A stretch of 64,000 nt of DNA from Promethearchaeota archaeon. GTDB taxonomy: Archaea > Asgardarchaeota > Lokiarchaeia > Sigyniarchaeales > SOKP01. Of the stretch, positions 41,454 to 62,289 are shown piece by piece (within the stretch, counting starts at the first letter, position 1; each line of letters opens with the position of its first letter). The notes under the pieces were generated by a model. It had not been told where the DNA came from, searched no databases, and worked only from the letters and a program-made list of their open reading frames with translations. The stretch covers positions 96,001-160,000 of the forward strand of contig JAEOUA010000008.1 of NCBI GenBank assembly GCA_016839555.1. The letters run 5' to 3'. Position numbers and translations under genes: made by a program.

Positions 41454-41546
41454 GAGGTTTATATGAAGTATTTTTAATCATTGATTTGAATTTTCCTATT
41501 TTAAAAATTGAATTAAAAATTAAATAGGTTTACGGATAGGAATAAA

Positions 41547-41619
41547 TGCGCCCGCCGGGATTTGAACCCGGGTCCCCGGCTTGGAAGGCCGAAATTCTAA
41601 ACCTCTATACCACGAGCGC
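41547..41619 (-). tRNA. tRNA-Gly(TCC), intronless, CCA not encoded
   Basis: GCGCTCG/CGGGCGC acceptor stem, TCGGC-CT TCC AA-GCCGG anticodon arm, CCGGG-TTCAAAT-CCCGG T arm. Confidence 0.96.
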
Positions 41620-41843
41620 AGAGAAGTAGAAGTTAAAGTATAAAATATATTAAACAATTAATATTTAATGGAAAAATTCTTATTTATATATTAATATAGA
41701 TCAACAAAGCTGTATTTTCCATTGTATATGAATATTTTTCGAAGCACACAATCATAAAAAAATTACTTGGATAATTAATCTTTAGAAATACCTATTATAA
41801 TTTCATTTAATGTTCATTATTTTATATTAATAGCATAAATCTT

Positions 41844-44800
41844 TCATAAAAATTCATTAATTGCATCATATCCATCAGGAAATAATTCATTTATAAGATA
41901 GGTTTGGACAAAAAAATTATACCATAAAGAATAACATTTTCCATTAATTGCTTCTTTTACTCTATTCTTTAATCTTAACCATTTTTTATAAAATTTTATA
42001 TATCTATAATGATTATACCAATCTTGTTCTTTAACATCGGGATTTTTCCAATCGACCCATCTATCAGCGAACTCATAGATTGTTTCTTTATCTATACCTG
42101 ATAATAATTCTTTGCCTTCAATAACAATGGGATCCCATAATCCTATATCATTACCATTAAAATATTCATTATTATATATTTCATGATAATATCTTACTAC
42201 TTTAAATAGCTCTTCAAACTTTTTATAATAACTTTCATTTTTATCATATTTTTGAATCGAAAGATCAAACAGGAACTGCATACGAGTTCTTAATATATCA
42301 TTTAACATTTTTGACCTTATACTGGTTCGGTGTAATCTTGAGCCTAACCATCTGTGTGTTTCTTGTATCATTGGAATTAATTCAAAAACAAAACCACTTT
42401 TTTGATTTGGATCTCGACGGAAAATATATAAATATTTATAATCCTTACTAGAATGATGACGTATCGTTCCTTTTATTGTTATTAAAAATTCACAAGTTGC
42501 TGGATCTAATCCTAAAGTAATTCGAATTAAATAAAATAACTGGAACGTGTACATATTTATATTAAGCCATATTTTATCATGACTACCAAGTAAACCATAA
42601 TAAGATTTGTATTTCTCATATATTTGAATTATCTCAATAATTCGTTGAGCTTCATCTAAAATATGAGTATCTTTATTATTTAAAAATTCATTTTTAACAA
42701 AATTCTCAATAATTTGCCATGTATCTTCAGCAGTAATTTTTTCATATAAAGGGACGATTTTATCTGTAAAGAAGTTTTTAGCTTCTGTATATCCTTTAGA
42801 ATAAAATAAATAATTCAATTTTTCTATATTTAATATCTCACCATGAGTTTTATACCACAAAATAATAATTGCATAAGTAATCTTTCTAATATATGTATCT
42901 TGTATGGCGTAAATAGAAAAGTCATAATGACTTTCTCTCCATTTTATGATATCCCTCAAAAGATCTCCTTTAAAGGTTTTTGACTTAAAAGTACTTTTTA
43001 CCCATAATTCAATTTGAAATGCAATATAATCATCCATTTTAGAGATTTTTTTATCTTTTCTAAAATGTGCTGAGAAATATGTTTTACCTAGACCTACTTT
43101 TTCCCCAATTTTATTATAAGTAAGAATAACTCCATATTCTTGAAAATAATATGATTGAAGTTTTTTAAATATTAAAAACTCATCAAGATTAGTTTTTTTT
43201 ATATCAAAAATAGGAATTTCTTGTTTTTTTCTATTATTTCTATATATTGCTAGAGCTCTTAGGATTTGATTTCTTTCTTTATTCGATATTGAATTTTGAT
43301 CATTAATACTAAAAAGAAGCTCATAATGCTTTAATAATTTTCTTTTAAATTGATTATTTTTACTACTTTTAATATTATCTCGTAATTTATCTTCTCCAAA
43401 CCATTTCATGAATTTATTATTTTGATTATTAAACTTTTTATTAATCATTATATTCCTTGCAATTTCATTAATAATTTTTCCAATTATTTTTTCTAAAGAT
43501 GTTATTAGAGAGATATCTTTATTTTTTATAAAATTAGTATATAAAATTAAAAATAAATCAGCTTCTAATAGCAATTCCGATTTTTCTTTAGCATAAGTTG
43601 GATATTCTAATGAGGGGCAAGGTAATTTATAATATTCCCTATACCATTCTTTAAAGTAATTTGTAAACTTTTGATTAATAATTACAGGTTTATTAGGATA
43701 TTTTATCTTGAATATTTCAATAGGGGTTGAAAATGAATTTGGAATCTTATCTGGAGTTCCATATGTTCCTAGATTAGGTAAATTACTATCTGCAACCTCA
43801 AGATTAAAACTATTTTTTTTCGAATATGGTTTTTTTATTATATTGTTTTTACTCTTTTCCTTAATTATAGTTTTTGTAAATAAAGAATTCAATTCATTGA
43901 AATTAATTTTTCTTAAATTTTTTCTTAATTTTTCCTTATCTTTCTCTGATATTCTTTTTTTCTTAGTGATATCTATAATTTTTGATTTTTCTTTCAAAGT
44001 TAACTCTGTAATTTTATATAAATTTGCTTTTATAAAATCCATGAAATTTTTTTTCAAAAAGTATAGATAATATATAATTAATTTATCTTTTTGTAAAACA
44101 TTGTTTTTTTTATCTATTTCATTTTTTACCCATTTTATATAATTTTTAGTAATATTTTCTCTCCATATCGCATTCTTTCCTGTTCTTTTCTCAAATTTTT
44201 TCATTAAATCCGTCTTATCTTGTTTTAAATCGTTTATTTCCAAAAAATGGTTAGAGATCAATCTTTTTTTCTTATTAACTAATTTAATTTTTTCATATTC
44301 CTTTCTTAATGATTCTAATTCCGCCTCTAATTGCGATAATCTTGCGATTTCTCTAACTCTTGTATAAGCTATTTCGCTTAATTTGAAAAATCTTTCCAAC
44401 ATTAACTGTTTTGTCGATCTATAGAACTCCCAGCCCCATCGAATATATTGAGTGGTGTGATATGCAAAAACTGCACCAAAAATCTTAATTAAAGTTTCAG
44501 TCGATAATAGACTTAAAATATTGATGATTTCTTTCTCTTCATCTTTAGAGATCTCTCCCTTAGAAAGGATGGACTGAATCTTAGCTTCATTCTCTTGATC
44601 CAGATCTTTAATATTTAAGAGCTTTTTTTTGAGCTTTTGAGCCCAATCTATAGAGGAAATTTGACTAGTGGGAATTGCCGAAGGATAATAAAGGAGTCTA
44701 AAATAGAGTAATTTAGTAAAAAGGTGTCGTAAAAATTTAGCTTTCTCTATTAAAGCCTGCTCTCGTAGATGAGGCTTATTATAAAGGTCCTTAAAGGATT

Positions 44801-47555
44801 TAAGATTAATAAATAATTGTTTTTCAACATGGGAGACTTCTTTAAAAAAACCTTGAATAATATTAAGCTTGATAAGATCCCTTGTGGTTGCTTCTCCTTT
44901 GATAAATTTATCAATTAAGCTCTTACGAATTCTATGCATTCTTCTTAAAAAACTATATTTGCTTAAAATTCTCAATAATTCATACCTTTCATCTTCTGAG
45001 ATGCTCGTATCTTTAAGATGTTCAATCCAATCCCTTAAAGTTCTTTCCCATTCTTCTTGAAAGTCCTTTTCATTTACTTCTCTAAGTTCTCGTGCTATTT
45101 CTGATAGAAGGTCTTGGAGCTCCTCCCCTTCTAATTGTTCCTCTCTCCTTTTATCTTTCTCCTTCTGTTGCTCATTTTCTTCGGCTTCATCGAGAGCTTC
45201 CTGATCTAAAGAATCACTCAAGGGCTCCTTTATTTCCTTATAAACATCTATATTTTCCTTTTCTTCTGCTAAATCCTCTAAATGATCATTTTTTTGTGTA
45301 TCTGAAAGCTCTTCTTTTTTTCGATTTTCTTTTATTTGTTTCTCTTTTGTTAGCTTCTTTTTTTGTTCAATAGTTTTGGAATAATCATCGGTTAAGATTT
45401 TTGATTCTAAATATGAGGTCTCTTCAGCTAGATATCCCATCTCTTCTTCTACTTCTCTTTCCTTTTCCTTTTCTCTTTCCTTTTCCTTCTGGTTAAGATC
45501 CTCTTCTAAAATTTCTAATTCTTTTTCTGAATCATCTTTTACTTCCGAAATCAGAGTTGCATCTGTTCTCTGTTCATTTTTCTCTTCAATTACCATTTTT
45601 TCTTTTATATCTTTTTCATTATCAATCTCTGGATGAGTTCGCTCAAGTTCTGCTTTCTCATCATTACTATAATCAAGATCGTACAGCAGTTCCTCGAAAT
45701 CCGTAGGCTTTTCGGTTGTTTCCTCAATTATGTCTGAACCAGATTCTATGTTTTTTTTAGTATCCTCTATTGTTTCATCAATAAAATCTTGCTGAGTGTG
45801 TTCCCCTTGTGTTTCTTTTGTCTTCTCAGCTTCTTTGATTTCTTCCTTTTCTTTATTGATAATTTCTTTATAGGGGATGGGTCCTTCTAATTCACAATAG
45901 ATCTCCCGCACGATATTATTATTCTCATCATAAGAGCTTGTTTCTCCCTTAGTTTCTTGTTCCTTTTCTAGTTCCTTTTCTTTAATTTCCTGTTCCTTAA
46001 GTGATTTCACTACTTCTTTATCTTCCTCGGTATTTTCTAGCACATGTGGGATCTCTAATTTCTTAGCATTTGCTTTCTCAACTTGTTTTTCTTTCTCAGA
46101 AGTAGTTCTTTCTTTTGGGTTCTCATCTAACTCTCTTCCTTTATCTTTAAGAATTTCTGCCACCTCGTTGTCTTCTGCTGTATTCTCTAAAATGGACTCT
46201 ATTTCTAATTTCTTTGCATTTCCCTTGAATTCTTTTTCTTCTTGTTCATCTTGTTTGGAGCTTTCTTTATTCTCCTCCCTTATTTCTCTTTCATTTTCCG
46301 TAATAGACTCCCTAACTTCTGTATCCTCTGTAGTATCACCTAATACGGGATCTATTTCTAATTTCTTTGCATTCCCTTTAAATTCTCTTTCTTCATTCTC
46401 CCACTCTTTTTCCTCAAGTTCAGGATTTTCCTCTGATTCGGGTTCTACATCACTCTCTGAGGCTATTTCTTCAGATTCCGTTGCTTCTGGATTGTTTTCC
46501 ATCTCCCCTTCATTTAATTCATTCTCATGGTGGTTATTGTTTAACAATTCCTCTGTTCTTTCCATTTCTTCTCTGGAATTTTTTTCCGACTCTCGATCAA
46601 TCTCCAAGGCTTGCTCGATAGCTGAATCTAATTCTTTAAGCTCTGCAAATTTTTTATCATCAACCTCAATAAATCTTTCAACATCTAAATCCTCGGTTTC
46701 TTCCTCTGATGATGAAGTTTCTTCATCTTTTCCATAAGATTGCTCTTTTTCTTTCTCTTGCTCTTTAGATTCTTTTTCTTTTGATATTAAAGAAGAGGAG
46801 AGAGAGCCGGCAGGATTTTCTAACTCACTATTGCCCTCCTCCTCATGACCTTTTTCATCTGTTCTCTCTGAAGATGATTCTTCTTCAACATTCTCTTTTT
46901 CATTTATGCTTTTCTCTGCGGTTCCCTCATTAGTTTCTGGCTCATTTACTTCCTCTGTTATAGAAGTGCCCTCAATTTCCCTTATAAAATCAAGATTAGG
47001 TTCGAATGGATTATTTTTCTCAAATTCTTCATGAATATTTTCAAATATATCTGGATTAGGTTCAAATGGATTATTTTTCTCAAATTCTTCATGAATGTTT
47101 TCAAATATATCTAGATCGGGCTCGAACGGATTATTTTTTTCAAACTCTTCATGAATATTTTCAAATATATCTGGATCGGGTTTAAATGGATTATTTTCTT
47201 CATAATTCTCCTCGATGTTTTCTAATAAGTCAAGATTAGGCTCAAACGGATTATTTTTTTCATAATTTTCCTCAAAGTTTTCTAAAAAATCATTACAAAA
47301 CTCTGATTGACTATTTTCTTCGAAATCTGAATCAAGATCTTTATCATTATCTTCAAGATCATTATTATTTTCATTAGAATTACTCTCATTAGCATTATCA
47401 TTATCAAATTCTAAACCTGAATCAGAATCAATCCCTTTGCCAGAATCTGATTCTTTGGTTTCTTTTTCTGTTTCTTTTCCATCTGAAGGACTTGCGGCAC
47501 CACTTCCCTTTTCGTCATCTGCTTCACCACCAGTTTCATAGCTGCCTTCTACCAA
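41844..47555 (-). CDS. Giant (1903 aa) protein: acidic low-complexity repeat N-half, basic C-half with HNH-like motif
   Basis: Long ORF; 20-aa NNPFEP repeats; E/K-rich stalk; C-terminal LDPATC...IRHH...LIPMIQETH (function inferred). Confidence 0.8.
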   Translation of the reverse strand: MVEGSYETGGEADDEKGSGAASPSDGKETEKETKESDSGKGIDSDSGLEFDNDNANESNSNENNNDLEDNDKDLDSDFEENSQSEFCNDFLENFEENYEKNNPFEPNLDLLENIEENYEENNPFKPDPDIFENIHEEFEKNNPFEPDLDIFENIHEEFEKNNPFEPNPDIFENIHEEFEKNNPFEPNLDFIREIEGTSITEEVNEPETNEGTAEKSINEKENVEEESSSERTDEKGHEEEGNSELENPAGSLSSSLISKEKESKEQEKEKEQSYGKDEETSSSEEETEDLDVERFIEVDDKKFAELKELDSAIEQALEIDRESEKNSREEMERTEELLNNNHHENELNEGEMENNPEATESEEIASESDVEPESEENPELEEKEWENEEREFKGNAKKLEIDPVLGDTTEDTEVRESITENEREIREENKESSKQDEQEEKEFKGNAKKLEIESILENTAEDNEVAEILKDKGRELDENPKERTTSEKEKQVEKANAKKLEIPHVLENTEEDKEVVKSLKEQEIKEKELEKEQETKGETSSYDENNNIVREIYCELEGPIPYKEIINKEKEEIKEAEKTKETQGEHTQQDFIDETIEDTKKNIESGSDIIEETTEKPTDFEELLYDLDYSNDEKAELERTHPEIDNEKDIKEKMVIEEKNEQRTDATLISEVKDDSEKELEILEEDLNQKEKEREKEKEREVEEEMGYLAEETSYLESKILTDDYSKTIEQKKKLTKEKQIKENRKKEELSDTQKNDHLEDLAEEKENIDVYKEIKEPLSDSLDQEALDEAEENEQQKEKDKRREEQLEGEELQDLLSEIARELREVNEKDFQEEWERTLRDWIEHLKDTSISEDERYELLRILSKYSFLRRMHRIRKSLIDKFIKGEATTRDLIKLNIIQGFFKEVSHVEKQLFINLKSFKDLYNKPHLREQALIEKAKFLRHLFTKLLYFRLLYYPSAIPTSQISSIDWAQKLKKKLLNIKDLDQENEAKIQSILSKGEISKDEEKEIINILSLLSTETLIKIFGAVFAYHTTQYIRWGWEFYRSTKQLMLERFFKLSEIAYTRVREIARLSQLEAELESLRKEYEKIKLVNKKKRLISNHFLEINDLKQDKTDLMKKFEKRTGKNAIWRENITKNYIKWVKNEIDKKNNVLQKDKLIIYYLYFLKKNFMDFIKANLYKITELTLKEKSKIIDITKKKRISEKDKEKLRKNLRKINFNELNSLFTKTIIKEKSKNNIIKKPYSKKNSFNLEVADSNLPNLGTYGTPDKIPNSFSTPIEIFKIKYPNKPVIINQKFTNYFKEWYREYYKLPCPSLEYPTYAKEKSELLLEADLFLILYTNFIKNKDISLITSLEKIIGKIINEIARNIMINKKFNNQNNKFMKWFGEDKLRDNIKSSKNNQFKRKLLKHYELLFSINDQNSISNKERNQILRALAIYRNNRKKQEIPIFDIKKTNLDEFLIFKKLQSYYFQEYGVILTYNKIGEKVGLGKTYFSAHFRKDKKISKMDDYIAFQIELWVKSTFKSKTFKGDLLRDIIKWRESHYDFSIYAIQDTYIRKITYAIIILWYKTHGEILNIEKLNYLFYSKGYTEAKNFFTDKIVPLYEKITAEDTWQIIENFVKNEFLNNKDTHILDEAQRIIEIIQIYEKYKSYYGLLGSHDKIWLNINMYTFQLFYLIRITLGLDPATCEFLITIKGTIRHHSSKDYKYLYIFRRDPNQKSGFVFELIPMIQETHRWLGSRLHRTSIRSKMLNDILRTRMQFLFDLSIQKYDKNESYYKKFEELFKVVRYYHEIYNNEYFNGNDIGLWDPIVIEGKELLSGIDKETIYEFADRWVDWKNPDVKEQDWYNHYRYIKFYKKWLRLKNRVKEAINGKCYSLWYNFFVQTYLINELFPDGYDAINEFL
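46045..46395 (-). repeat. Three degenerate ~150-nt intragenic repeats (GNAKKLEI motif)
   Basis: EREFKGNAKKLEI, EKEFKGNAKKLEI, VEKANAKKLEI about 50 aa apart. Confidence 0.75.
46985..47291 (-). repeat. Intragenic 60-nt tandem repeat, about 5 copies
   Basis: Consecutive 60-nt sequence lines align; encodes (I/F)xEEFEKNNPFEPNLD units. Confidence 0.92.
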
Positions 47556-47582
47556 AGTTAAACACTCTTCATTATTTCATTT

Positions 47583-48473
47583 TTAATTTTTATGCGTAGT
47601 TTGATTATTATTTTCACTTATTTTAGTCTTACCATCTAAATTTTGTTTTATATTTCCTTTTTCCTTGAGTTCGCTTGAGGATTTTTGCATCTCTTGAATA
47701 GTTGATTCTGGAAAATGTGGTTGCTTAGTCTCTTCTTTCTTAGCAATAAGTTTTTCTTTGGTTTGCTTATTATTTATTACTAATGCTAACCATTCATCAG
47801 GTTTCTCAAAAGGATCAACTTCCCATTCGAACTTATCTGGTAGCCAGCTTTTAAGAGTATTAAGAGAGTTATATTCTTCGAATTCTTTGTCAAATCTATC
47901 TATAAATTCACTATTAGGCTTAAAAGGATTATTATCTTTGAATTCTTCCTCAAAGTTTTCTAACATATTGAGATTAGGTTCAAACGGATTATTTTTTTCA
48001 TAAATTTCCTTAAAATTTTCTAAAAAGTCAAGATTAGGCTTAAAAGGATTATTATCCTTGAATTCTTCCTCAAAGTTTTCTAATAAGTCAAGATTAGGTT
48101 CAAATGGCTTATTTTTTTCATAATTGTTTTCAAAATCTTCTAAAAAGTCTAAATAAGGTTTTAAGGGACTTTTTTCCTCAATTTTCAAATGAAAATCACG
48201 TGAAACATTTTTTGACATATATTCCTCCTGCAAATCACTATTTTTTTTATCTCTAGAGATTGTAACGCTAATTTTATTAAACATAGCTGATTTTTCAGGC
48301 TGTCCTGAGAAATCTGGATCAGGGTTAAATATTTCTGATCCAATTTGCTCTACTTCATCTGCAGTACTATGTTGGGCAAGGAAGTTAGCAAAAGAGTAGT
48401 CGTAGCGCCTCCACATATCACCTCCTTCTTCAGCCTCTTTTATTTCTTTCAATTCTCTTTTGGATTTCTTCAC
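47583..48473 (-). CDS. Hypothetical protein (296 aa) carrying the same 20-aa NNPF(E/K)PNLD repeat
   Basis: ORF with LENFEEEFKDNNPFKPNLD units. Confidence 0.75.
   Translation of the reverse strand: MKKSKRELKEIKEAEEGGDMWRRYDYSFANFLAQHSTADEVEQIGSEIFNPDPDFSGQPEKSAMFNKISVTISRDKKNSDLQEEYMSKNVSRDFHLKIEEKSPLKPYLDFLEDFENNYEKNKPFEPNLDLLENFEEEFKDNNPFKPNLDFLENFKEIYEKNNPFEPNLNMLENFEEEFKDNNPFKPNSEFIDRFDKEFEEYNSLNTLKSWLPDKFEWEVDPFEKPDEWLALVINNKQTKEKLIAKKEETKQPHFPESTIQEMQKSSSELKEKGNIKQNLDGKTKISENNNQTTHKN
47895..48170 (-). repeat. Intragenic 60-nt tandem repeat (about 4.5 copies, alternating 120-nt higher-order unit)
   Basis: Lines 47941 and 48061 nearly identical; homologous to the repeat at 46985-47291. 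Confidence 0.9.
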
Positions 48474-48487
48474 TTTAGTACCTCTTA

Positions 48488-50407
48488 TTATAATTTGCTA
48501 TCTATAGTTTTCATTACAAATCTCTCTCCACGTCCTCCATTCAAAACTAAAAGATTTCTATTTTGAAGGGATTTAAGAAACTCCTGCTCCTCCAAAATGT
48601 TTGTAAATCGCTCCACATCATCTTTTTGTTCCCGAAAAACAAAACTTAGGCTCACCAGCTTTGTTACGAAATTAAGTAAATCTGAGGGCGTCTGATCTAC
48701 TATTACAATTGAGGTTCCTTTTCCCCTAAATTCTTGTAGTAAATTTTTAAACACACTTCCTAATTGTCGACGTGAAATCATATCCTCTTCACTTATATTA
48801 CCCCTTGCATCTGCCACTAAATTATGAGCTTCATCTAGGCAAATCAAATATTTCAATGTATTTACTTCTTGCTCTGGAGTCAAAGCTTGTACCATCTGAA
48901 AGATTGCGTTCGCTAAGAGTCGTCGAGAATATAAATCAGCTGGATGGAGGTCGATGTATACATTTTTTCCCGCTCTCCATTCCTTAAACCATTGAGGAAT
49001 AAGATTATTTTCTTCCAGACGAGTGGTATCCATTAAGTAATCATCTACGAATAAACATTTCGTACGATTATTAAAAGCCTGTAAAACATCGGTTTGATAT
49101 TTTATATGGTATGGATTTTTTTCGAACCAATATACTACAGCATAAAATAATTCTGAGAGTGTGCTTGGTAAATGCCCTTTTATAAGAAAATATAAGCCCA
49201 TAATATTTACGAAGATTTTATTTAGTGGCTCCTCAAATCCTAATGAACCTGCCAGATAATCGGCCGTTTGCTGGAGACATTTGCTCCGATAAGCCCCATC
49301 TACATAATATGGGATTTTACAATCCGATGTCCCATAACGAACAATACGATCTACTGGAAATTTTCCCTCTTGGAATCCTTTTCCTACATTTATTATTAAA
49401 ATTCCGACCTCAGGGGCTTTTTTCGCAAATTGGCTACAAATTTGGCTGAGTAAGGTGGTTTTGCCAGTCTTCGGCATACCACAAATCAATACACTATGGT
49501 CAAAATCGTCTTTTGTCATACAAATTTTTTGAGAGGTTTCCACACCATTCTTCACATAATTCCCTAATATAAATTTTTTATCATCAAAATGGAGTGAATC
49601 ATAGATATTTTCCTTTTTAAAATAAGCAGCCTTTTGAAGAGGTAATTCAGGGAAAAAAATAAAATCAAAGCTGTGCGATTCTCCTCTACAAGTAAGAGTC
49701 TCGCCAATAAACACATTACTCGTCATAATTTTATTCCAGACACTCATTTCTTTTTTAATCCACTCTCCGTATTGAATATCTTTTCTAAAACCCATACTTA
49801 TGTACTGCAATCTCCCTAATAATTCATGAAGGCCGGTATCAAGGGATTTTTTTATAGGATTTATTTTTAAATAGATCTTTATATGATAGGGAGCAAGTGG
49901 TTCCCGTGCGGTTCTCCAAAAAATGTTGAATTGAACATTTAAGGATGTAAGGTATTTTGATAATGCAATCATGCGCTTAAAAATTATAAAGCGATTATTG
50001 GGATGAGCCTTAAATGCGGGAAATTTCAACTCATATAATTGAGCACCTTCCTCAAGTGGTGCATTAGTACTAGGGACCACAGACAAGGTTCCAGACAATC
50101 CGAGATAAGTATCCTCTAAAAAAGTAAGAAAAGTGTATCCTTTGATGGCTGCGTCCTTCTTGGATCGTTCTGTTATATAAAAAATGAGTCTAAATTCCCT
50201 TCCCATTTGTAGTTCCATACAATAAATCCTATTATGATCAGAAAAGGGATCTGCCAACCAAGATATTAAATAATCATATTTAGATTCATCTCCTAACGAT
50301 TTTAAATGATCTGAAGGACGGGAGGGTATCTGAGTTATTTCAATACGTGCTTGCCAATAACCCTCAAATCCTAATCGATTTTTAATGATCTCTGTATCTT
50401 TTATCAT
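48488..50407 (-). CDS. HerA/VirB4/TraG-type (FtsK-HerA superfamily) P-loop ATPase
   Basis: Walker A GMPKTGKT, Walker B LICLDEAHN, arginine-finger/Gln motif EFRGKGTSIVIVDQTPSDL. Confidence 0.85.
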   Translation of the reverse strand: MIKDTEIIKNRLGFEGYWQARIEITQIPSRPSDHLKSLGDESKYDYLISWLADPFSDHNRIYCMELQMGREFRLIFYITERSKKDAAIKGYTFLTFLEDTYLGLSGTLSVVPSTNAPLEEGAQLYELKFPAFKAHPNNRFIIFKRMIALSKYLTSLNVQFNIFWRTAREPLAPYHIKIYLKINPIKKSLDTGLHELLGRLQYISMGFRKDIQYGEWIKKEMSVWNKIMTSNVFIGETLTCRGESHSFDFIFFPELPLQKAAYFKKENIYDSLHFDDKKFILGNYVKNGVETSQKICMTKDDFDHSVLICGMPKTGKTTLLSQICSQFAKKAPEVGILIINVGKGFQEGKFPVDRIVRYGTSDCKIPYYVDGAYRSKCLQQTADYLAGSLGFEEPLNKIFVNIMGLYFLIKGHLPSTLSELFYAVVYWFEKNPYHIKYQTDVLQAFNNRTKCLFVDDYLMDTTRLEENNLIPQWFKEWRAGKNVYIDLHPADLYSRRLLANAIFQMVQALTPEQEVNTLKYLICLDEAHNLVADARGNISEEDMISRRQLGSVFKNLLQEFRGKGTSIVIVDQTPSDLLNFVTKLVSLSFVFREQKDDVERFTNILEEQEFLKSLQNRNLLVLNGGRGERFVMKTIDSKL

Positions 50408-50575
50408 ACTTTTTCTTTCACCTTTTTTATTTTTGTTTCAATTGTTAAATACTTTTGCTATTTACTTTTAAATAAAAAATTCAAATCATTTGTAAATCTA
50501 AAAAATATTTTTATAAGATCTATATAAACAAAAAAAGAAAGTGATTTTTTCTTTATCCCCCACTTTGAAAAACCT

Positions 50576-51394
50576 TTACCACTGTGCGGTGCCTTCATCT
50601 TTTTCCTTAGAATTATTGGATTTAAACCTCTTCTTATGCGGGTCTTCTGCCTTTTCTGTATCATAGGATTGGCGGCGCTCTTTAAAATGCTTATATAAGT
50701 GCCTTATGCCCTTGAATAAATATTTATAAACGTAATAAAACGCCCCTAAGAGTAAAAGAAACAGTGCTTCATGAGGAAATATCCATCCATAAATACAAAC
50801 TATTATGGTACCCGTAATAAAAGAGGGTATCAACAGGAAGATTTGATATAAGGTATAGGTAGGGTCTCTACTCACTGCTGCCCCAATGCAATATATGTCT
50901 TCTGCGGATGGCGCTATTCCCACTATTAATGAAATGATGACTAATAGAATAATGAGACAACCCCAGAAATCTAAATTCGCATTGAAAAGAATTTGGATTA
51001 AGGGCCATAGGATCCAGAAGAGAACGTACACAGGTGCGAGTGCCCCTAAAAGAGCTTGCAGAAAAGTAAAGGGACTCTCCTCATGAATATTTACACTTCC
51101 ATAATAGCTATATTTCTTCACCGTACCATGATTTTCTTTGTCCCATCCTAATAATTTAATCTCCCTCACAGGCGCTCCAGTTAGTTTACAAATAATTAAA
51201 TGCGCAAGTTCGTGAGAAGCGATCCCTAAAATAAAAAAAATACGCGCAAAATTTCTCACTCCATTGGACGCCTTATTTACTAATAAATATTTTACGATAA
51301 AGGAGATAAGGACAAAAATAATCATCGCAAAAAACCCATCAAATAGAATTGGAATAATTACTTCAAAAAGAGTGGTAAAAAATCCATTTTCCAT
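50576..51394 (-). CDS. Membrane-embedded HExxH metalloprotease (M50/M50B-like)
   Basis: GIASHELAHLIICKLTGA, GALAP, APSAED; multiple TM helices. Confidence 0.8.
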   Translation of the reverse strand: MENGFFTTLFEVIIPILFDGFFAMIIFVLISFIVKYLLVNKASNGVRNFARIFFILGIASHELAHLIICKLTGAPVREIKLLGWDKENHGTVKKYSYYGSVNIHEESPFTFLQALLGALAPVYVLFWILWPLIQILFNANLDFWGCLIILLVIISLIVGIAPSAEDIYCIGAAVSRDPTYTLYQIFLLIPSFITGTIIVCIYGWIFPHEALFLLLLGAFYYVYKYLFKGIRHLYKHFKERRQSYDTEKAEDPHKKRFKSNNSKEKDEGTAQW

Positions 51395-51562
51395 AGTTTT
51401 TAACCTATTTTAATTATTTTATAATCTAATCTTTGTTTGCTAGTATTCATAGAAAAATAGAAAATAGATCTATTTAAAAAAAAATTGTAGAAAGAAAAAA
51501 ATAAAAAAATCCTTAAATTAAAATCCCACGTCAAATAATGCATTATAATTCCTCTTATTCGT

Positions 51563-54500
51563 TTAATTCTCGTCTACTATCTTTTTAAAATCTCGAAATA
51601 TAGAATTAAAAAATATAAAAAGCGTTTCTGAATATGATCGTATTTCCTCTTTATACTGGTTTATATTTTCTTGTGAAATATCCGATAATTTTGCTCTTTC
51701 TAAGAGCGAATCTAAAGATGCTCTATTGATCGTTAGAGGAATAGAAGTTAATAGGAAGGTGACTGCCTTCTCTAGTATAAGATCCGGAATTTCATTCTTC
51801 TCTTCGGGATAAAGGTCGCAGTAGAACTCAACTAAGAAGGTAGGTAGTGCAGAGCGTTCTAATATTATTGCTTTTTCAAATTGCTGTTTATCAACTAATA
51901 CAGAAATATCTATAATTTTTATAAGAAAGTCACTCATATGGTCAAAGAATTTATTTATAATTTCTGATTGAGTATATGATGACGTCGATTCATTATTAAA
52001 ATATTTATTATTTCTCGGAGTAGTAGATACCTCAGTAGTCCCCTGATTGGTTTTTGTATCTTTTATTTTAGGAAAGTTCGAACTTAAATTATTTGGTGTG
52101 AGTATGCTTTCTAAGTCAAGTTCTTTTTCGGATTCTTGCTCAAGAAGCTCTACTGAAATTTGAGTCTCTTGATCTCTCTTTAATTCAAAGTAATCATTTA
52201 AAGATTCTTGGTATTGAGGCCCTACCGCATATGAGGTGCGAATGGATTGAGAGCCGCTTGCACGTCTAGGATGACTCTCAATTATATAGTTATATTTGAG
52301 AAAAATATTAAATAATTGATCCCTTATGAGTTTTACCTGACGTTTGTCTTTTCCGTATCGTTTCTGAACCTTTGGATAAAGAATTTTAAGAAGTTCTTCC
52401 TTAATCTTACTTTTATAAAGGTTGCCCACTTGATCAAGAGTCTGCAATACACTAAAGAACTTTATAATTTCATCCAAGAAAAGGATATAATGTTTAAAAT
52501 GTTGTTCAAAAAGGGTTTTTTGCGCGTTAGAAAGTATGTTTTTTTCATTATCTTCAAGATTATAACCTTGGTGAAACATATATTCATTAAGTTGCTGTTG
52601 AGATACTATATTTAGATTCAAGAATTCCATATTATCTATAATAATCGGAAATGGTTGAGGAAAATCATCTCTTTTAACAAGTAATTCATCCCTTTTCAGG
52701 TTCATGAGAAATGGTACTTGATAACTCTCTTTTCGCTTGGAACTATAATAGCCCTCCCCATGAAGTTCAGACAAATTCATTAAGTTCTTCAATACAGCAA
52801 TATCCCGTTTATCAGTAGTTTTAAAGGAGATAAAGTTTTCAAAATAATTAAACACATGAGGATGCATGTCTCGAATTTGATTAGCTGTCGTTATAATCCC
52901 CATTTGCAGTGCTTGAATAGGCTTTATAAGCTTCATAATCTTGCCGTAGCGATAATCCCCTTGTCTATCGAGAAAATTATTATCAAATATAATATCAGTA
53001 TTGGGAACAATAAATATCTTCTGATAAAAACTCCTTTCCTCATAAAATCTCCTGATATATAGCAAAATTTTCACAATGATTACAAAAGTTATAAATACTT
53101 TCGGCTCTAAATCTTGGAAGATGGAAAGATCAATAATTATAGTTTTTTCATTTTGTATGAATTCATAAGAGAAGATTTGAGACCCTCCTATTCCATCGGA
53201 TGGTTTATCCGTCCCACCTAACTCGTAGTTTTTCGTAGAGATAACACTGGGCCCCTCCCTAATTTGTTGGAGCACGGAGATAATAGGCCTCATACCAATA
53301 TTTTTCTCCCATACATTCTGATTTTTGATATCCAATAAAAATTCGGTATATGAAAATTTTTCTTCCTTTAATAATTCTTTAAGGGCGTCCATTGGTTCCC
53401 TTCGTTGTTTATAGACCATCGCTAAGATGTCCACGATATAGCTAATATAGCTATCACGTTCTGAATCATAGGGAATATCAGAATCAAATGGATCAATCTG
53501 AAAATTTTTTCCTAATGAAAAAACTAAAAATTCATTTTCATATTTACTTCCTTGAAAATAAGAAAGCAACACGGAAAAGGTACCATCATAATCGAATACA
53601 ATAGATTGCTCTCCTTGTTTCACTAACTCTGCGACAATTTTAAACAACAAATATTCTCGAGCTTTATAAGATCCATTTGTTATTAACAGATTTTTAATTT
53701 GTTCAAATGTGAACCCCGCGGGTACTTCCTCCATAAGAAATTCGGTATTAAGCGTATATCCTATAGTTATGAAGTTTTCAAGATTAAGGGGCGTATTAAA
53801 CTCAGATGCAATTCTTGTCTCGATTGCTTTCCTAAATTCAGGTGAAATTTCCATCAAATTCATCAAAACTTTTCCTTGCATAATTAAATAATTCAAATGA
53901 GTACCTCCCAGTCGAAAGAATTTTGATTTGAGGGTTGAGGCCCCAATCCCGGAAGAAAGGTAATTTTGTGAAAGTTGCTCTAACTCATAATTAGGAAAAT
54001 TTCCCTCAAAAATACTAGTAATTGTCTCTGTTCGATGTCGGAGTTTATTTCCTTGATTTATTATTACTTCTTGGGTTATATTCGTGGCATAGGTAATAGT
54101 ATGGATTGTATGAAGTATAATCAGACGCCAGAGTCCGTTTCTCATAAACATCCAACCTGCTTGTTCATATTTCTTTAATTTTTCATTCAAGAAATCTCGA
54201 TGACCTTCCTTTATCCATTTAAAGCATTTATCCACGAAATAGGCATAAGATATAGGAGCAGAGATTATTGTATATGTAAAAGGGATTTTTTTACCGACCA
54301 GTGCTCTGAAATATTTAGCGGGGGTAGCAATAAATTGATCTTTTTTCATAAATTGAGTTGCCGCATATTTCACATTAAGAAAGTTCATAGCCAGCAATAT
54401 TTTCTTGTTTATATGGGCGAATACTATTTCGCTATATTTACGAGACCTAAAAAAATCAATATTATGAAAGGGTGATACCGTGAAATGCTCTTCCTTAACT

Positions 54501-55576
54501 AGCGTGAACCGACTGATTGAAAATAATACCTCACGCCAAAAGATAAAAAATATAATGAAAACAAGAATAATATTTATAATTGGGATCCAGTAAAACTTTA
54601 AAGGAATTAGGACTAAAACCACATCAAAATAAAGAACGAAGCTAATTACCAATAATGTTTTAAACGGTTTTATAACTAAATCTTTATCTTTTAAATTGTC
54701 TTCCTCTTCAAAATCCATCCCACATACAAAATTCTTTATTCCTTGGACTAAATCATCGCCGACCAGTTTATCGATCTTCGTATGCGCAAAATCTTCAATC
54801 ACAATCTCTTCAAATTTAGCTTGATACCCCCTTAATTTATCTGTAATAAGGCTCACTAGCGATTTAGTTAGAATTCCTGTAGCATAATATGATATTGCAA
54901 AATATAGATTGATACTCATCGTGCTGGAGTTTCTTTGCAATAGTGGTGCTTGAATCACCTGATAAGTAAAAGGAACACAGGCAATATGAAGTGTTTTTAC
55001 GAAATGGTTGAGATTAGGGCTCACATTTTCCGGAAAGACGCTAATTTTGTAGAGGCTTAAGCCGGAATGCTGTAAATCCTGAGTGTTTGAGAAATAGAGA
55101 ATATCCCTTTTATAAAGATTACCTTTATCAAAAAATTGTTCATTAAAAGTAGTGGAGGCTGTAAATTGAGCCTCTTCTGTCGCCGAATCTGCGAACCAAA
55201 AGCGTAAATGAGCAAATGGATCAAACTTTCCCCGTGTTAGTCCACTGAATGAAGAGATTAAAAATGAATTGTCTCCAAAGACGAATATAAATAAGAGAAA
55301 GAAGATTGTCGGAAGTAAGATCGCTATACTGATAGAAGTAGTCCATAAAAATGTTAAATAACCCATCATAAAATGGACTCCCAGAGAGGCAATAATCTTT
55401 ATGATCCCCAAACTTGTATTTATATCCTTAAAAGAAGGGATTTTATCCCAAATATTTAAATAACTGCCAATCTGGGCTTGCTGTGGTTTATATTCTTTAT
55501 TGGTCGAATGTTTATTCTTCTCATATTGTTCTCGATATGCTTTTTGATTATCATTATCTTTTTTATATTTATTCAT
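51563..55576 (-). CDS. Large membrane-anchored protein with degenerate HerA/VirB4-like ATPase domain
   Basis: Two TM pairs; LLITNGSYKARE (broken Walker A), SIVFDYDG, IIIDLS, GIITTANQIRD...FISFK. Confidence 0.72.
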   Translation of the reverse strand: MNKYKKDNDNQKAYREQYEKNKHSTNKEYKPQQAQIGSYLNIWDKIPSFKDINTSLGIIKIIASLGVHFMMGYLTFLWTTSISIAILLPTIFFLLFIFVFGDNSFLISSFSGLTRGKFDPFAHLRFWFADSATEEAQFTASTTFNEQFFDKGNLYKRDILYFSNTQDLQHSGLSLYKISVFPENVSPNLNHFVKTLHIACVPFTYQVIQAPLLQRNSSTMSINLYFAISYYATGILTKSLVSLITDKLRGYQAKFEEIVIEDFAHTKIDKLVGDDLVQGIKNFVCGMDFEEEDNLKDKDLVIKPFKTLLVISFVLYFDVVLVLIPLKFYWIPIINIILVFIIFFIFWREVLFSISRFTLVKEEHFTVSPFHNIDFFRSRKYSEIVFAHINKKILLAMNFLNVKYAATQFMKKDQFIATPAKYFRALVGKKIPFTYTIISAPISYAYFVDKCFKWIKEGHRDFLNEKLKKYEQAGWMFMRNGLWRLIILHTIHTITYATNITQEVIINQGNKLRHRTETITSIFEGNFPNYELEQLSQNYLSSGIGASTLKSKFFRLGGTHLNYLIMQGKVLMNLMEISPEFRKAIETRIASEFNTPLNLENFITIGYTLNTEFLMEEVPAGFTFEQIKNLLITNGSYKAREYLLFKIVAELVKQGEQSIVFDYDGTFSVLLSYFQGSKYENEFLVFSLGKNFQIDPFDSDIPYDSERDSYISYIVDILAMVYKQRREPMDALKELLKEEKFSYTEFLLDIKNQNVWEKNIGMRPIISVLQQIREGPSVISTKNYELGGTDKPSDGIGGSQIFSYEFIQNEKTIIIDLSIFQDLEPKVFITFVIIVKILLYIRRFYEERSFYQKIFIVPNTDIIFDNNFLDRQGDYRYGKIMKLIKPIQALQMGIITTANQIRDMHPHVFNYFENFISFKTTDKRDIAVLKNLMNLSELHGEGYYSSKRKESYQVPFLMNLKRDELLVKRDDFPQPFPIIIDNMEFLNLNIVSQQQLNEYMFHQGYNLEDNEKNILSNAQKTLFEQHFKHYILFLDEIIKFFSVLQTLDQVGNLYKSKIKEELLKILYPKVQKRYGKDKRQVKLIRDQLFNIFLKYNYIIESHPRRASGSQSIRTSYAVGPQYQESLNDYFELKRDQETQISVELLEQESEKELDLESILTPNNLSSNFPKIKDTKTNQGTTEVSTTPRNNKYFNNESTSSYTQSEIINKFFDHMSDFLIKIIDISVLVDKQQFEKAIILERSALPTFLVEFYCDLYPEEKNEIPDLILEKAVTFLLTSIPLTINRASLDSLLERAKLSDISQENINQYKEEIRSYSETLFIFFNSIFRDFKKIVDEN

Positions 55577-55982
55577 TGTTTATCAATAAAAAATAGTTAT
55601 TGGTGGGGTATAATAGCAAAACTATTTAAATAAAAAATTCGAAATATAAGGAGAATTTAAAATTTTTTATAATGCCTTAAATAAAATCAATTAGAACAAC
55701 AATAATAGATGAAATTATCTTAATTTTTTTTAAATATAAGGGATATTAATTAACTCTAAAAACAAAGTTACTTAAAGGTAGGGTTGGGGTATAATATTCT
55801 TTTTAAAAAGAATGTTTTTCAAGTTTATAAATATTGCTGATAATTTCTTTCGATTTTCAATAGAAACCACAAAATAATTTCGATATTTTGATGATTTTTT
55901 ATTTAAATAGATTTATCAAATTATTATTCTAATTGTAAAAGAAAAATTGATTAAAACTTAAAAAATAGAGAAAAAAAGAAAA

Positions 55983-56366
55983 ATGGCGGAAGTAATAGTT
56001 TATCCTCAGCAGAATCAAGGTCAAGCAAAAACATATATTAAATGGGTTTTTTATGGAATTATAATCTTTCTTGCGATAATTTTTCCTTTTTTTGGCTATG
56101 AAATACGCTCTCAACTCGGTACTATCTTTCGGGGCTTTTTTAACATTGTATTTAACGTTATCGGAACTCTCTGTATATTTGGGGGGATTATATATCTCCT
56201 TTTAGGAGTTTTTGGATTATTTTCGAGGCGATTTTCATTTAAGCAAATTATTCTTGGGGCTTTACTACTTTGGGTCGGTTGTTGGATGACAGGTATTGTA
56301 ATTGATTTTTTTGGCGTTAGTTTCGGAGGAAAAGGGTCTTCTATATCCTCGAAAGGATATCATTAA
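55983..56366 (+). CDS. Small membrane protein (3 TM), divergent from the ATPase cluster
   Basis: 127-aa Gly/Phe/Ile-rich hydrophobic ORF. Confidence 0.7.
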   Translation: MAEVIVYPQQNQGQAKTYIKWVFYGIIIFLAIIFPFFGYEIRSQLGTIFRGFFNIVFNVIGTLCIFGGIIYLLLGVFGLFSRRFSFKQIILGALLLWVGCWMTGIVIDFFGVSFGGKGSSISSKGYH

Positions 56367-56644: not shown

Positions 56645-57358
56645 ATGAAGTCAAAGTTGTCCCATCTCTCGAATGAAGTAAATGCAATAATCGGAATTGG
56701 AAATAAAGAATATAGTCAAGGACATCTTGAGGGAGCAGTCAATTATTGGGAAAGGGCGCTAAGCTTATTAAGTAATGCTAAGGTAAGAATTAAGGGGTTA
56801 AATGTATATGCGGCGGAACATATAAATAAAGCCCAAAGAAGATTAAGAATTAATATAAGAAATGTAACTAAATCCATTAAAGAAGAGATTAGGGTTAAAA
56901 ATCTGCTGGATGCCCCCACCGAAATTTATTGCCAAGCATGTGGATGCCTTAATGACTCGGATAGAACGATATGTAAGCAATGCGGAACCCCTTTGAGAAC
57001 CATTGGCTTCTCTTCAACTGACCAGCAAGATGATCTATTAGAAAAATGCGAATCTCCTATTGAAAGACAATTTTTTACTTCCGCGAGGAAGCTAATACCC
57101 AATTTAGAACCCCAAGAATGGATTGGAAAATATCGCGTAGACTTTGCCCTCAAAGATAAAAAGGTAGTGGTGGAATTAGATGGGCATTCCTATCATAAAA
57201 CAAAAGAACAGCGGCAAAATGATGCAGAACGGCAACGACACCTTCAAAAAGAAGGCTATACAGTCATTCGATTTACTGGAAGCGAAATCAATAAGGATCT
57301 TAGTGGGTGCATCTCTGAAGTGTTAGATATCTTGGACAAAAAAAGTAATTCTAAATAG
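56645..57358 (+). CDS. TPR-like helices + zinc ribbon + DUF559 (Vsr-like/PD-(D/E)xK) endonuclease domain
   Basis: CQACG..CKQCG; ESPIE; Q..IGKYRVDFA..VVVELDGHSYH..DAERQRHL..GYTVIRFTGSEI. Confidence 0.88.
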   Translation: MKSKLSHLSNEVNAIIGIGNKEYSQGHLEGAVNYWERALSLLSNAKVRIKGLNVYAAEHINKAQRRLRINIRNVTKSIKEEIRVKNLLDAPTEIYCQACGCLNDSDRTICKQCGTPLRTIGFSSTDQQDDLLEKCESPIERQFFTSARKLIPNLEPQEWIGKYRVDFALKDKKVVVELDGHSYHKTKEQRQNDAERQRHLQKEGYTVIRFTGSEINKDLSGCISEVLDILDKKSNSK

Positions 57359-61700: not shown

Positions 61701-62289
61701 GAAGGACTTCAATTTGATAACTGTTTGCCAAATAATCATAAAATATATCTGTTTTATTTTCTATGTTTGAAATATTTCTTCTAACATAAATGAAGAAAAA
61801 TCTAATTGTATTCTCATCCAGATCCTGAAAATTTGAAAAAAATTTTTCAATTCTATTAAAGAGGGGGTTATAATCCTCTATAATATGTGTTTCTTTTCTA
61901 ATTCTAATTTTCCAATTATTAATCCTTGGATGTTTTTTTAATTTAAGTTCAACAATATAATTAATAAAGATTTTTATTGGTTTATTATTTAAGAGTTGAA
62001 AAGGTAAAAAGCAATAGAAAGCTTCACGCAATAAGATAAATGGAAAAATACTTTCATATTTAGCACTCAATTTAAGGATAAGGGTATGATTTACAAGTTT
62101 TCGCTCAACTCCTATATTAAAGATATCTTTAGTATATAAATATTTATTAGTTTTTATAATCCGAATCTTATTTACAACGGGTTTCATCCTTATATCTTTA
62201 GAAATTAGAGATATTATATTTTTAAAAACATCTAATAATTCAACTTCCAATAATTTATTCAAATTGGATAGTAAGATTTCATATTCCAT
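58720..62289 (-). CDS. Large hypothetical protein (1189 aa) with repeated Lrp/AsnC-like segments
   Basis: Long ORF; several P-x(5-7)-G-hydrophobic-strand segments resembling the Lrp HTH-RAM linker. Confidence 0.72.
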   Translation of the reverse strand: MEYEILLSNLNKLLEVELLDVFKNIISLISKDIRMKPVVNKIRIIKTNKYLYTKDIFNIGVERKLVNHTLILKLSAKYESIFPFILLREAFYCFLPFQLLNNKPIKIFINYIVELKLKKHPRINNWKIRIRKETHIIEDYNPLFNRIEKFFSNFQDLDENTIRFFFIYVRRNISNIENKTDIFYDYLANSYQIEVLLQMWDEDILETIRILIKIFYKKKTFKNLAQYTQLFKDFKKIGFIKTDLSTNKFTESLRWLKKYSFVSPSYQIYYKNIGINIYWILFQFDPSISKKRIKIVLKNFPFLAHIRFSSNGLSIFASGYLYLPKVYTKSLFSLLKSLKSRNVQTICIKRQKVKNNLNLNYFQDFHNIKNLINPNHQKYEEKFEIDFSYSYGEELIDSVKLSHLDFLILDRIRYYSLTGFGFEPSRRKINQLRMDYINDFLFQIKFIKKLRMDLELLFTHPIMQKDFISIIDKFFNAGIFYIKYFFVSILEIIKLLKKIVVDQNITSIIDFKAFIKSNHVNLFSKQVNHSDFKKRLVQKLILLYFNNKIKFEEEVKKVSLFSTILNNFFILKIFNVKNIKKIILDKDLAFSIYSGKKKKITSIKRQYKLREITINKVQEIINKYIQMDPPILKPNLINTIRTTHFAHYCIYIILKDTSQVIELIDRMKSFFPRLILERGEDVLSKRKYIFLGLYLPNLSINEKYNLISIFYNIFKKNIIEVLRFFSSGVLNVFSVKDYYDFQKGKFFYARDMFSQFLLLINRFLNKTKHPSDMKDRKSRIYLFTNENNLLKLARDVSKRNSRRQVRFNPTHLHELEDFHKNLSSILSNTDLFKGFKQAPFFNQYVQSIKFIPQHQSFGFSKYFLWFTTSKLEEINKKCVLTKNFLSLKHPIEIHQNFYSFLITYLFPYHTPNNSYLNWLLKSKKAFLEYILFFIKKVYHVLHFNYNLTSNGWNLNANHFNSFARKIIFKQQYNLVLPSMKEFDFDSISDMFFEPNSLEFKDLMNLYTFQPDDLKSFLAQEKHHKIDSFQNLNSKHLLFPYLELKNLDLCENFYFIIPNISIEVITVLIKIFGFFNYCFIYEIEGEIYINEMKDQKHFENGLFIKLTLPDCEFSEFDEVFHGIFDLLGIKRYCILNDLVEGKNFLKDVFKDLSFLNHYTPLKNLEWNDKDNIWVNYKLLDENFNFQDFKI

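Follow-up and report, generated by a model that had tools for sequence, protein, structure and literature searches.

What is a run of co-oriented genes for an active ATPase, its dead counterpart, a membrane protease and two repeat proteins, one of them giant, doing beside a tRNA gene of an Asgard archaeon? The locus lies in the AT-rich genome of a Loki-type Asgard archaeon (G000; GenBank assembly GCA_016839555.1), within a stretch of 64,000 nucleotides that was analysed whole and that we call the window (G000:C7:96001-160000). Comparison with related loci, designated by L-numbers, showed that the conserved part is a three-gene cassette for protease, ATPase and giant protein, that this cassette is restricted to Loki-type Asgard archaea, and that its giants end in unrelated C-termini. 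The answer that we favour, and hold as tentative, is a motor-coupled, DNA-targeting cassette of a mobile, selfish or conflict type that lands beside conserved housekeeping genes.

An initial annotation of this DNA had described five co-oriented genes, a divergent gene for a protein with three transmembrane segments and an adjoining tRNA-Gly. All of these are present (Table 1), the five open reading frames (ORFs) having the sizes first given and intergenic gaps of 168, 168, 14 and 27 nt in the order P0001-P0002-P0003-P0004-P0005. Its suggestion that a survey of Lokiarchaeia might reveal a conserved core with variable giant C-termini also proved sound, but the idea of a five-gene cluster stands in part only. 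The trio of protease, ATPase and giant is syntenic at L001-5, L027, L035, L040 and L050, and the gene after the ATPase gene encodes a giant of 1376-2437 aa in L001/2, L004, L027, L035, L040 and L050. The conserved unit is thus three genes, since P0004 and P0006 occur only here among the cassette loci compared and the dead ATPase is not a constant member. Of the seven loci with enough flank, four have a P0001-like gene beside the trio (the window, L004, L035, where it is split in two, and L050); it is lacking in L027 and L040, and is not assessable in L001/2, where a contig end cuts the locus.

The trio occurs in at least seven genera of one family, in a patchy and sometimes multi-copy fashion. 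Homologues of the ATPase were found in 85 genomes out of 400 in the phylum and in 58 of 134 in the family; the six other genomes of the genus yielded none. No published description of the cassette was found in the literature searched, and two papers on Asgard mobile elements do not mention HerA, FtsK or VirB4 (PMC11529989, PMC8813620). What is novel is that a ring motor is combined with an intramembrane protease, with a dead membrane paralogue of its own and with a modular giant tagged by repeats; the component superfamilies and ATPase-nuclease pairings are already known.

The ATPase P0003 belongs to the FtsK-HerA superfamily and has intact motifs. Within its family (alignment of 32 sequences) the Walker A residues G310, G315 and K316, the Walker B residues D525 and E526 and several arginines are invariant or nearly so, and the motifs GxxxxGKT and hhhhDE are invariant, in keeping with its first description as an active enzyme. 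After a family-specific N-terminal domain of ~260 aa, residues ~265-639 of the AlphaFold2 model (pLDDT 85.7) superpose over 320-340 residues (VIA-align) on the DndH C-domain (Z 30.3), VirB4 (4ag5; Z 27.8), HerA (Z 26-27) and TrwB (Z 24). As the fold is equally like HerA, VirB4 and DndH, it does not assign P0003 to one branch of the superfamily. At the level of sequence, Pfam DUF87 matches 17 of the 32 family members, P0003 itself having P-loop-level Pfam matches only; the PADLOC model mad8 matches it at 1.9e-8, as do several PADLOC HerA models. P0003 does not belong to the VirB4 family, the TIGR00929 model reaching 17.1 bits against a cut-off of 643.1, and in the P-loop region only. Nor does the locus resemble a HerA-NurA end-resection system, there being no match to the NurA, Mre11 or Rad50 families among the cluster or flanking proteins.

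Sister clades of this ATPase (897-1032 aa) carry an N-terminal domain of seven transmembrane segments (7-TM) fused directly ahead of the shared N-domain motif F-W-Q-A-R...I-T-Q; homology of this domain to the cassette protease is not supported (hhalign E 0.086). One such paralogue, distant (25-29% identity) and 897 aa long, lies in the source genome at C7:183839-186532 (within L026 = G000:C7:175000-195000), ~24 kb past the window's end and ~38 kb from the P0003 gene. It has the fused 7-TM N-terminus and a C-terminal zinc ribbon, and its neighbours encode a PilB-like T2SSE ATPase (723 aa), a type IV prepilin peptidase and an Rce1-like protease.

The second member of the trio, P0002, is predicted to be an intramembrane metalloprotease of the M50/S2P-like type. 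As the initial annotation held, it combines an HExxH motif with membrane segments: the motif sits inside one of five hydrophobic segments. Ten sequences share the invariant residues H61, E62, H65 and C69, P162-S163..D166, and H208-E209, and both H61-E62-H65 and P162-S163..D166 lie in or beside hydrophobic segments. Pfam scores stay below their cut-offs (DUF3267 20.2 against 27.1 bits, Peptidase_M50B 16.7 against 26), and the L050 orthologue matches Peptidase_M50 at E 0.002. The protease family, matched in 97 of 134 genomes of the archaeal family, falls into two classes, one high-scoring (29 matches, at least 19 of them encoded next to an ATPase gene) and one low-scoring, mostly a single-copy 'core' paralogue that is found in most genomes. 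The core paralogue of the source genome (G000:C11:103414-104160, 248 aa, with HExxH) adjoins genes for a 119-aa protein with two transmembrane segments and a 248-aa Walker-A protein.

P0001, first annotated as a membrane pseudo-ATPase, is indeed an inactive member of the FtsK-HerA superfamily and a paralogue of P0003. Its N-terminal half holds two transmembrane hairpins (aa ~56-100 and 308-354) with a soluble module behind each; the degenerate ATPase domain covers aa ~600-1140, and a helical tail closes the protein. The two soluble modules are homologous (aa 100-300 against 350-600: probability 98.3%, E 1.7e-14), and the degenerate domain aligns with the ATPase domain of P0003 over 328 columns (hhalign E 3.3e-5, probability 72%). 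Across the family (58 proteins, 46 of them aligned, with all source names given being Promethearchaeota or Thorarchaeota) Walker A is replaced by ITNG..RE, which has no lysine, and the D-E of Walker B by P858-N859. One member, P0064, exceeds the Pfam DUF87 cut-off (27.6 against 23.2 bits), and P0001 itself matches PADLOC weakly. Homology of its N-terminal modules to the N-domain of P0003 is not supported (hhalign E 0.05-0.17), though both alignments anchor on a shared D-P-F segment. The family also occurs in a separate operon that has no cassette ATPase (contig C11 of G000, L048 and L049). On C11 a 50%-identical paralogue (L055, G000:C11:116207-123773) lies near Hel308-like helicases in this different but conserved operon, together with three membrane proteins of 534, 247 and 309 aa.

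The giant is the most informative partner. An exhaustive HMMER search with aa 800-1903 of P0005 split it into modules A and B, giving the order N-terminal acidic repeats, long acidic linker, module A and C-terminal end. Module A is helical, with invariant residues around 'RWGW', and at all loci tested with its hidden Markov model it marks the ATPase-adjacent giants (L004, L027, L001/2, L035 and L050, weakly L040); the giant of L062 matches it too. It is found in about 36-37 of 134-135 genomes of the family, at least 19 of its matches lie within ~3 kb downstream of an ATPase match, and a protein-atlas feature search returned no usable match for it. What follows module A differs from giant to giant, the C-termini being unrelated even between giants that are ~60% identical in module A. 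That of L050 carries LAGLIDADG_3 (49.7 bits, 4.4e-13) and a WhiA-like domain, that of L027 a treble-clef zinc finger, and that of P0071 weak helix-turn-helix (HTH)/TFIIB-like signals. Partners of sister-clade ATPases show GIY-YIG (L039; 34.5 bits, 2.6e-8), a weak homing-endonuclease-associated repeat (L033) and LAGLIDADG_3 (L030 and L031; 63 and 54 bits). The latter two genes (L030:6635-9298, L031:11517-13640) encode N-terminal D-F-E-P repeats and a C-terminal intein-like region (Intein_splicing plus LAGLIDADG_3) with only ~10 residues after it.

Helices make up most of the window's own end, module B; its single small beta region carries a conserved Cys and three His and leads into a helix. 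The initial annotation had seen an HNH-like tail here, which we could not confirm: the AlphaFold2 model of the C-terminal 600 aa (pLDDT 80) matches no solved or Atlas structure (Foldseek against PDB best E 0.3, VIA-align best Z 6.7, ESM Atlas best TM-score 0.27), and only the Cys, the His triplet and a stretch of beta-beta-alpha type would fit such a tail. Residues 164-255 of module B bear a weak likeness to Cro/C1 HTH domains (Z 6.4). Elsewhere module B occurs as free-standing proteins of 466-900 aa, and paralogues lie at C12:278477-280369 and C11:308841-311750 in the source genome and at L047:9188-11020. Free-standing module-B genes stand singly among housekeeping genes, beside an eIF2-alpha-like gene in two genomes and between genes for a PALP enzyme and PyrI in another, a layout that resembles that of free-standing homing endonuclease genes.

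At the other end of the giant, all full-length proteins with module A begin with 3-7 tandem acidic units of 13-20 aa that share an aromatic-acidic-proline core. The unit is NNPFEPNLD in P0005 (5 copies), EYNPFECPD in L035 (3-4), NEWEPPE in L004 (5-7), EPWDPTPD in L001/2 (5-7), DDFNPNVDE in L027 (5), DDWDPPDF in P0071 (5), WDPS in P0072 (3) and KDWDPDGP in L050 (4), and arrays of [FWY][DEN]P or NPF lie within ~200 residues of the N-terminus in P0071, P0072 and P0081 and in the giants of L004, L001/2, L027, L035 and L050. In P0005 the motif NPF recurs at aa 102, 122, 142, 162 and 182, five times against a mean of 0.06 in shuffled sequence. P0004 is made of ~4.5 copies of the same 20-aa NPF unit and is 68% identical to aa 89-154 of P0005. 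The repeats first reported in these two genes are thus real: both the P0004 gene (4.0-4.4 copies) and the 5' end of the giant gene hold tandem repeats with a period of 60 nt. Small and mid-sized proteins encoded 3' of several 7-TM-fused ATPases also start with D-F-E-P-type motifs. At least three [FWY][DEN]P/NPF motifs within the N-terminal 250 residues were seen in 10 of 16 partners encoded downstream of ATPases and in 11 of 2745 ORFs of the genome, two of the latter being P0004 and P0005. We take these repeats to be a docking signal, multivalent in nature, that the ring ATPase would recognise. A complex prediction for P0003 with module A of the giant scored 0.00 and is evidence neither way.

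How cassettes and giants are placed in genomes bears most directly on mobility. In G275, of the same genus, a ~10-kb insertion lies directly upstream of alaS (L062 = G275:C68:1-19134). It holds the gene of a 1635-aa giant (module A E 4e-130, identity within this module 60%). ORFs of 248, 101 and 540 aa accompany it, as does one for a 311-aa protein in which an HxK (PLD-like) motif occurs together with Cys-rich ribbons. Compared with G000, where the alaS site is uninterrupted, the intact alaS product of G275 is 63% identical over its first 150 aa and 78.6% over the remainder, and a displaced native alaS 5' fragment (148 aa, 81% identical) lies at the insertion's far end. The insertion replaced the 5' end of alaS with a diverged copy, which suggests self-mobility. 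In G228 a 2.83-kb block of protease and ATPase genes occurs at two sites, 98.7% identical and with unrelated flanks. Elsewhere the cassette neighbours rpoA (L001/2), the 3' end of smc (L027) or a short-chain dehydrogenase/reductase (SDR) sugar-nucleotide gene (L035).

At the window itself, the cassette begins a longer stretch that is missing from the same place in congeners. In four congeners a homologue of G000 C7:239981-241117 follows EMG1 and tRNA-Gly within 1-5 kb, so that ~100 kb starting with the cassette are missing there. Of three genes sampled from this stretch, one is absent in congeners, one is present in two of five, and one has paralogues only. The corresponding region, G000:C7:137600-239980, which runs from window position 41600 to ~80 kb past the window's end, is either variable on a large scale or the breakpoint of a rearrangement. 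Integration into the tRNA gene was considered and rejected: no tRNA-derived att repeats stand above chance genome-wide, and 41-64 kb of the window hold no second tRNA or fragment. Likewise, the split rpoA1 gene of L002 was rejected as an insertion; we read it as a frameshift or assembly error, since its length equals that of the intact L001 gene to within 1 nt. In L035, the UDP-glucuronate-decarboxylase-like SDR gene 3' of the giant (L035:3543-4635, G177) is split into two overlapping ORFs of 179 and 186 aa, possibly through a frameshift, a pseudogene state or an assembly error.

Taken together, DNA-targeting ends, membership in a superfamily of DNA motors, insertion behaviour and a patchy, multi-copy spread, along with the lack of immunity and toxin genes and of any detected pilin or channel gene, make a mobile or conflict element acting on DNA more likely than a protein-export machine. 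A possible parallel in behaviour is offered by homing endonuclease genes that stand free (phage T4 seg/mob type) and by other site-specific, target-restoring insertions: like these, cassettes and their relatives lie beside highly conserved genes (tRNA-Gly, alaS, rpoA, smc), some relatives carry LAGLIDADG or GIY-YIG, and one neighbouring gene had its 5' end replaced by a diverged copy. Unlike them, the cassette is a 7-14 kb unit with a motor ATPase and a membrane protease, and its nuclease would lie within a giant acidic protein.

In the mechanism that we propose, the protease, joined in this window by the dead paralogue, would anchor the ATPase ring to the membrane, a tethering that would parallel the fusion of a 7-TM domain to the ATPase in sister clades. 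The ring would dock the giant through its multivalent N-terminal repeats, the C-terminal end would recognise or cut DNA, and the motor would then act on that DNA. Binding of repeats to the ATPase, nuclease activity of module B, the role assigned to the protease, and resection, movement or transfer of DNA are all conjectural steps in this scheme. Within the favoured reading, homing-like copying is one of several possible modes of action. The NPF and W-D-P arrays are formally like the NPF/DPW/DPF arrays of eukaryotic endocytic adaptors. A more far-reaching version, which is possible but on the unlikely side, would make the cassette a new class of archaeal mobile element: a membrane-anchored HerA-type motor with a protease and a giant bearing an exchangeable site-specific nuclease, which docks by a motif code, inserts beside essential genes while replacing their ends, and copies or transfers itself by ATP-driven translocation of DNA.

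Several observations weigh against a DNA-targeting mobile cassette. No nuclease or DNA-binding fold was found by Pfam or structure search for the window's own module B, and the LAGLIDADG domains of L030 and L031, lying inside intein-like regions, may be secondary invaders. Neither ATPase nor protease was detected in the G275 insertion, so that the giant may be mobile without the motor. A search for copies of flanking genes displaced as at alaS found none at the window, L001, L027, L035, L040 or L050, and neither a target site nor a target duplication was found around the window copy or at the five other loci. Part of the multi-copy counts rests on metagenome bins that are 5-9% contaminated, and the contrast between genome ORFs and ATPase-downstream partners in motif content is indicative only, because the motif was defined after the data had been seen. 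Finally, classical homing endonucleases need no motor, no membrane protease and no 800 acidic residues.

Among the alternatives, anti-virus defence ranks highest, though we consider it unlikely. Here a HerA-like hexamer would scaffold and activate the nuclease-bearing giant on sensing foreign DNA, with the protease and dead paralogue as a regulator or a second effector. The ATPase's best sequence-level matches are the defence models named above, and its closest structures include the DndH C-domain, SIR2-HerA and DUF4297-HerA. Like the known HerA-plus-effector anti-phage pairs (SIR2-HerA/Nezha, DUF4297-HerA, the MAD7-MAD8 pair of MADS, and DndFGH), which are the closest structures and profiles found, the cassette sets a HerA-class ATPase beside a variable, nuclease-type partner and is patchy and accessory; several copies, variable effector ends, and neighbours such as a DUF559 endonuclease-domain protein in the window and leucine-rich repeat proteins at L004 and L050 would also fit. 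MAD7-MAD8 is known as an ATPase-nuclease module (PMC13662399). The cassette differs from these pairs in having a polytopic membrane metalloprotease in its core and a membrane-anchored dead paralogue, and in that its partner is a modular protein of 1400-2400 aa with acidic repeat arrays. No cognate effector (SIR2, DUF4297/Cap4-like, mad1-7) was found beside the ATPase by Pfam or PADLOC, and no partner protein matches a PADLOC model. Known defence HerA proteins are soluble, whereas the cassette family is tied to membrane proteins or fused to a 7-TM domain. Homing elements, and not the known defence effectors, are the typical carriers of LAGLIDADG and GIY-YIG domains, and the replaced alaS 5' end, too, speaks for self-mobility rather than defence.

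Export of the giant, which the initial annotation had put forward as a translocation machine with its protease and cargo, we regard as improbable. In this scenario the giant, which is signal-less, would be threaded outward by a pair of membrane ATPases and processed by the protease, and its variable C-terminus would be a polymorphic effector or toxin, as in type VII secretion systems (T7SS) with LXG proteins. EccC and EssC are membrane ATPases with degenerate ATPase units, and a membrane-tethered ATPase with a degenerate paralogue recalls them; the protease belongs to the core, the N-terminal repeats could serve as an export signal, and a conserved helical module precedes a variable C-terminus. 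The likeness to ESX/T7SS (EccC/EssC, mycosin, LXG), with active and degenerate FtsK/HerA-superfamily units and a protease at the membrane, is an analogy only: the NCBIfam EccCb match has E 0.17, WXG/LXG proteins and immunity genes are lacking, and the systems belong to a different domain and phylum. The C-termini vary as those of polymorphic toxins do, yet Pfam found no toxin domain in them, and no conserved small or immunity-like gene follows the giant: next comes the tRNA in the window, alaS in G275, a convergent smc in L027, and a 172-aa ORF and then rpoA in L001. Pfam and NCBIfam revealed no channel or pilus component, and where a C-terminus can be recognised it is a homing-type, DNA-targeting domain. 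The parts list and the pairing of an active with a dead ATPase thus survive from the earlier interpretation; its cargo or polymorphic-toxin side lacks support. The DNA-targeting ends and the alaS insertion point to DNA action and mobility.

The earlier view that the locus does not match a standard conjugation locus is in keeping with Pfam, NCBIfam and the literature, which gave no match to Ced/Ted or to a type IV secretion system (T4SS), and no relaxase or pilin was found. With these systems the cassette shares a VirB4-like ATPase fold and small membrane proteins, and it has no relaxase, like the archaeal systems; it differs in the lack of any detected VirB6/CedA-like or pilin component and in a VirB4 score far below cut-off, and Ced/Ted has neither the protease nor the giant partner. 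No Pfam or NCBIfam match in the locus points to a VirB6/CedA-like channel or a VirB2/CedA1-like pilin, but such sequence searches cannot exclude them, because Ced and Ted components share no sequence similarity even with each other (PMC9905601). Conjugation-like transfer, in which the nuclease end of the giant would nick or cut a specific site and pilot the DNA to the membrane HerA-like motor for passage between cells, much as a relaxase and coupling protein or Streptomyces TraB do, is very improbable. In its favour, the motor is membrane-tethered and shares its superfamily with VirD4, VirB4, CedB and TraB, archaea have no recognisable relaxases anyway (PMC9905601), and the genome holds a 7-TM-fused paralogue beside a PilB-like ATPase and a prepilin peptidase, but VirB6/CedA-like and VirB2-like components were not found, the VirB4 model reaches 17 bits against 643, the second locus is only that distant paralogue, and the distribution shows no sign of cell-to-cell transfer.

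The surroundings of the cassette are those of an archaeal chromosome. The left flank consists of housekeeping genes (EMG1/Nep1, RNase P Rpr2, S19e and L31e), and the tRNA-Gly is a native flank outside the cassette; a foreign origin was set aside, because congeners have 89-93% partial matches at the same locus, adjoining EMG1. On the other side, the divergent P0006 matches the Pfam model T4SS_pilin at E 0.28 only and has a 58%-identical paralogue elsewhere in the genome (C11:84474-84770). Just past the cassette (window 56645-57358, plus strand) follows a gene for a 237-aa protein with a tetratricopeptide-like start, a zinc ribbon and a DUF559/MTES_1575 restriction-endonuclease-like domain, homologues of which were seen at none of the other cassette loci. 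Further on (58720-62289, minus strand) a 1189-aa ORF lies within a very AT-rich stretch (GC 0.23), with no Pfam or PHROG match and no homologue at the other loci. A viral origin was dropped: in PHROGs the ATPase tail alone had a short match, to a terminase-like family (6e-8), and structural proteins were not found.

Table 1. Features of the cassette and its immediate flanks, in window coordinates.
Feature	Position	Strand	Description
P0001	51563..55576	-	1337 aa; membrane-anchored HerA-like paralogue, catalytically dead
P0002	50576..51394	-	272 aa; polytopic (five transmembrane segments) HExxH metalloprotease, predicted M50/S2P-like type
P0003	48488..50407	-	639 aa; active HerA/VirB4-class P-loop ATPase
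P0004	47583..48473	-	296 aa; acidic repeat-only protein
P0005 (giant)	41844..47555	-	1903 aa
P0005 N-terminal repeat array	46956..47291	-	aa ~89-200; five 20-aa acidic units
P0005 module A	43836..45149	-	aa ~803-1240; conserved helical module
P0005 module B	41847..43688	-	aa ~1290-1903; locus-specific C-terminal end
tRNA-Gly(TCC)	41546..41620	-	223 nt 3' of the giant's stop codon, same strand
P0006	55983..56366	+	127 aa; divergent protein, three hydrophobic segments (three transmembrane segments)

Asgard archaea are the closest known relatives of eukaryotes, yet very little is charted of their mobile elements and conflict systems. The cassette described here is widespread in one Lokiarchaeial family and joins parts that were not known to work together. 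Should it prove to mobilise itself or to confer immunity, it would add to genome plasticity beside essential genes, it could supply new site-specific nucleases, and it would offer a testable case of short-motif docking on a prokaryotic ring ATPase.

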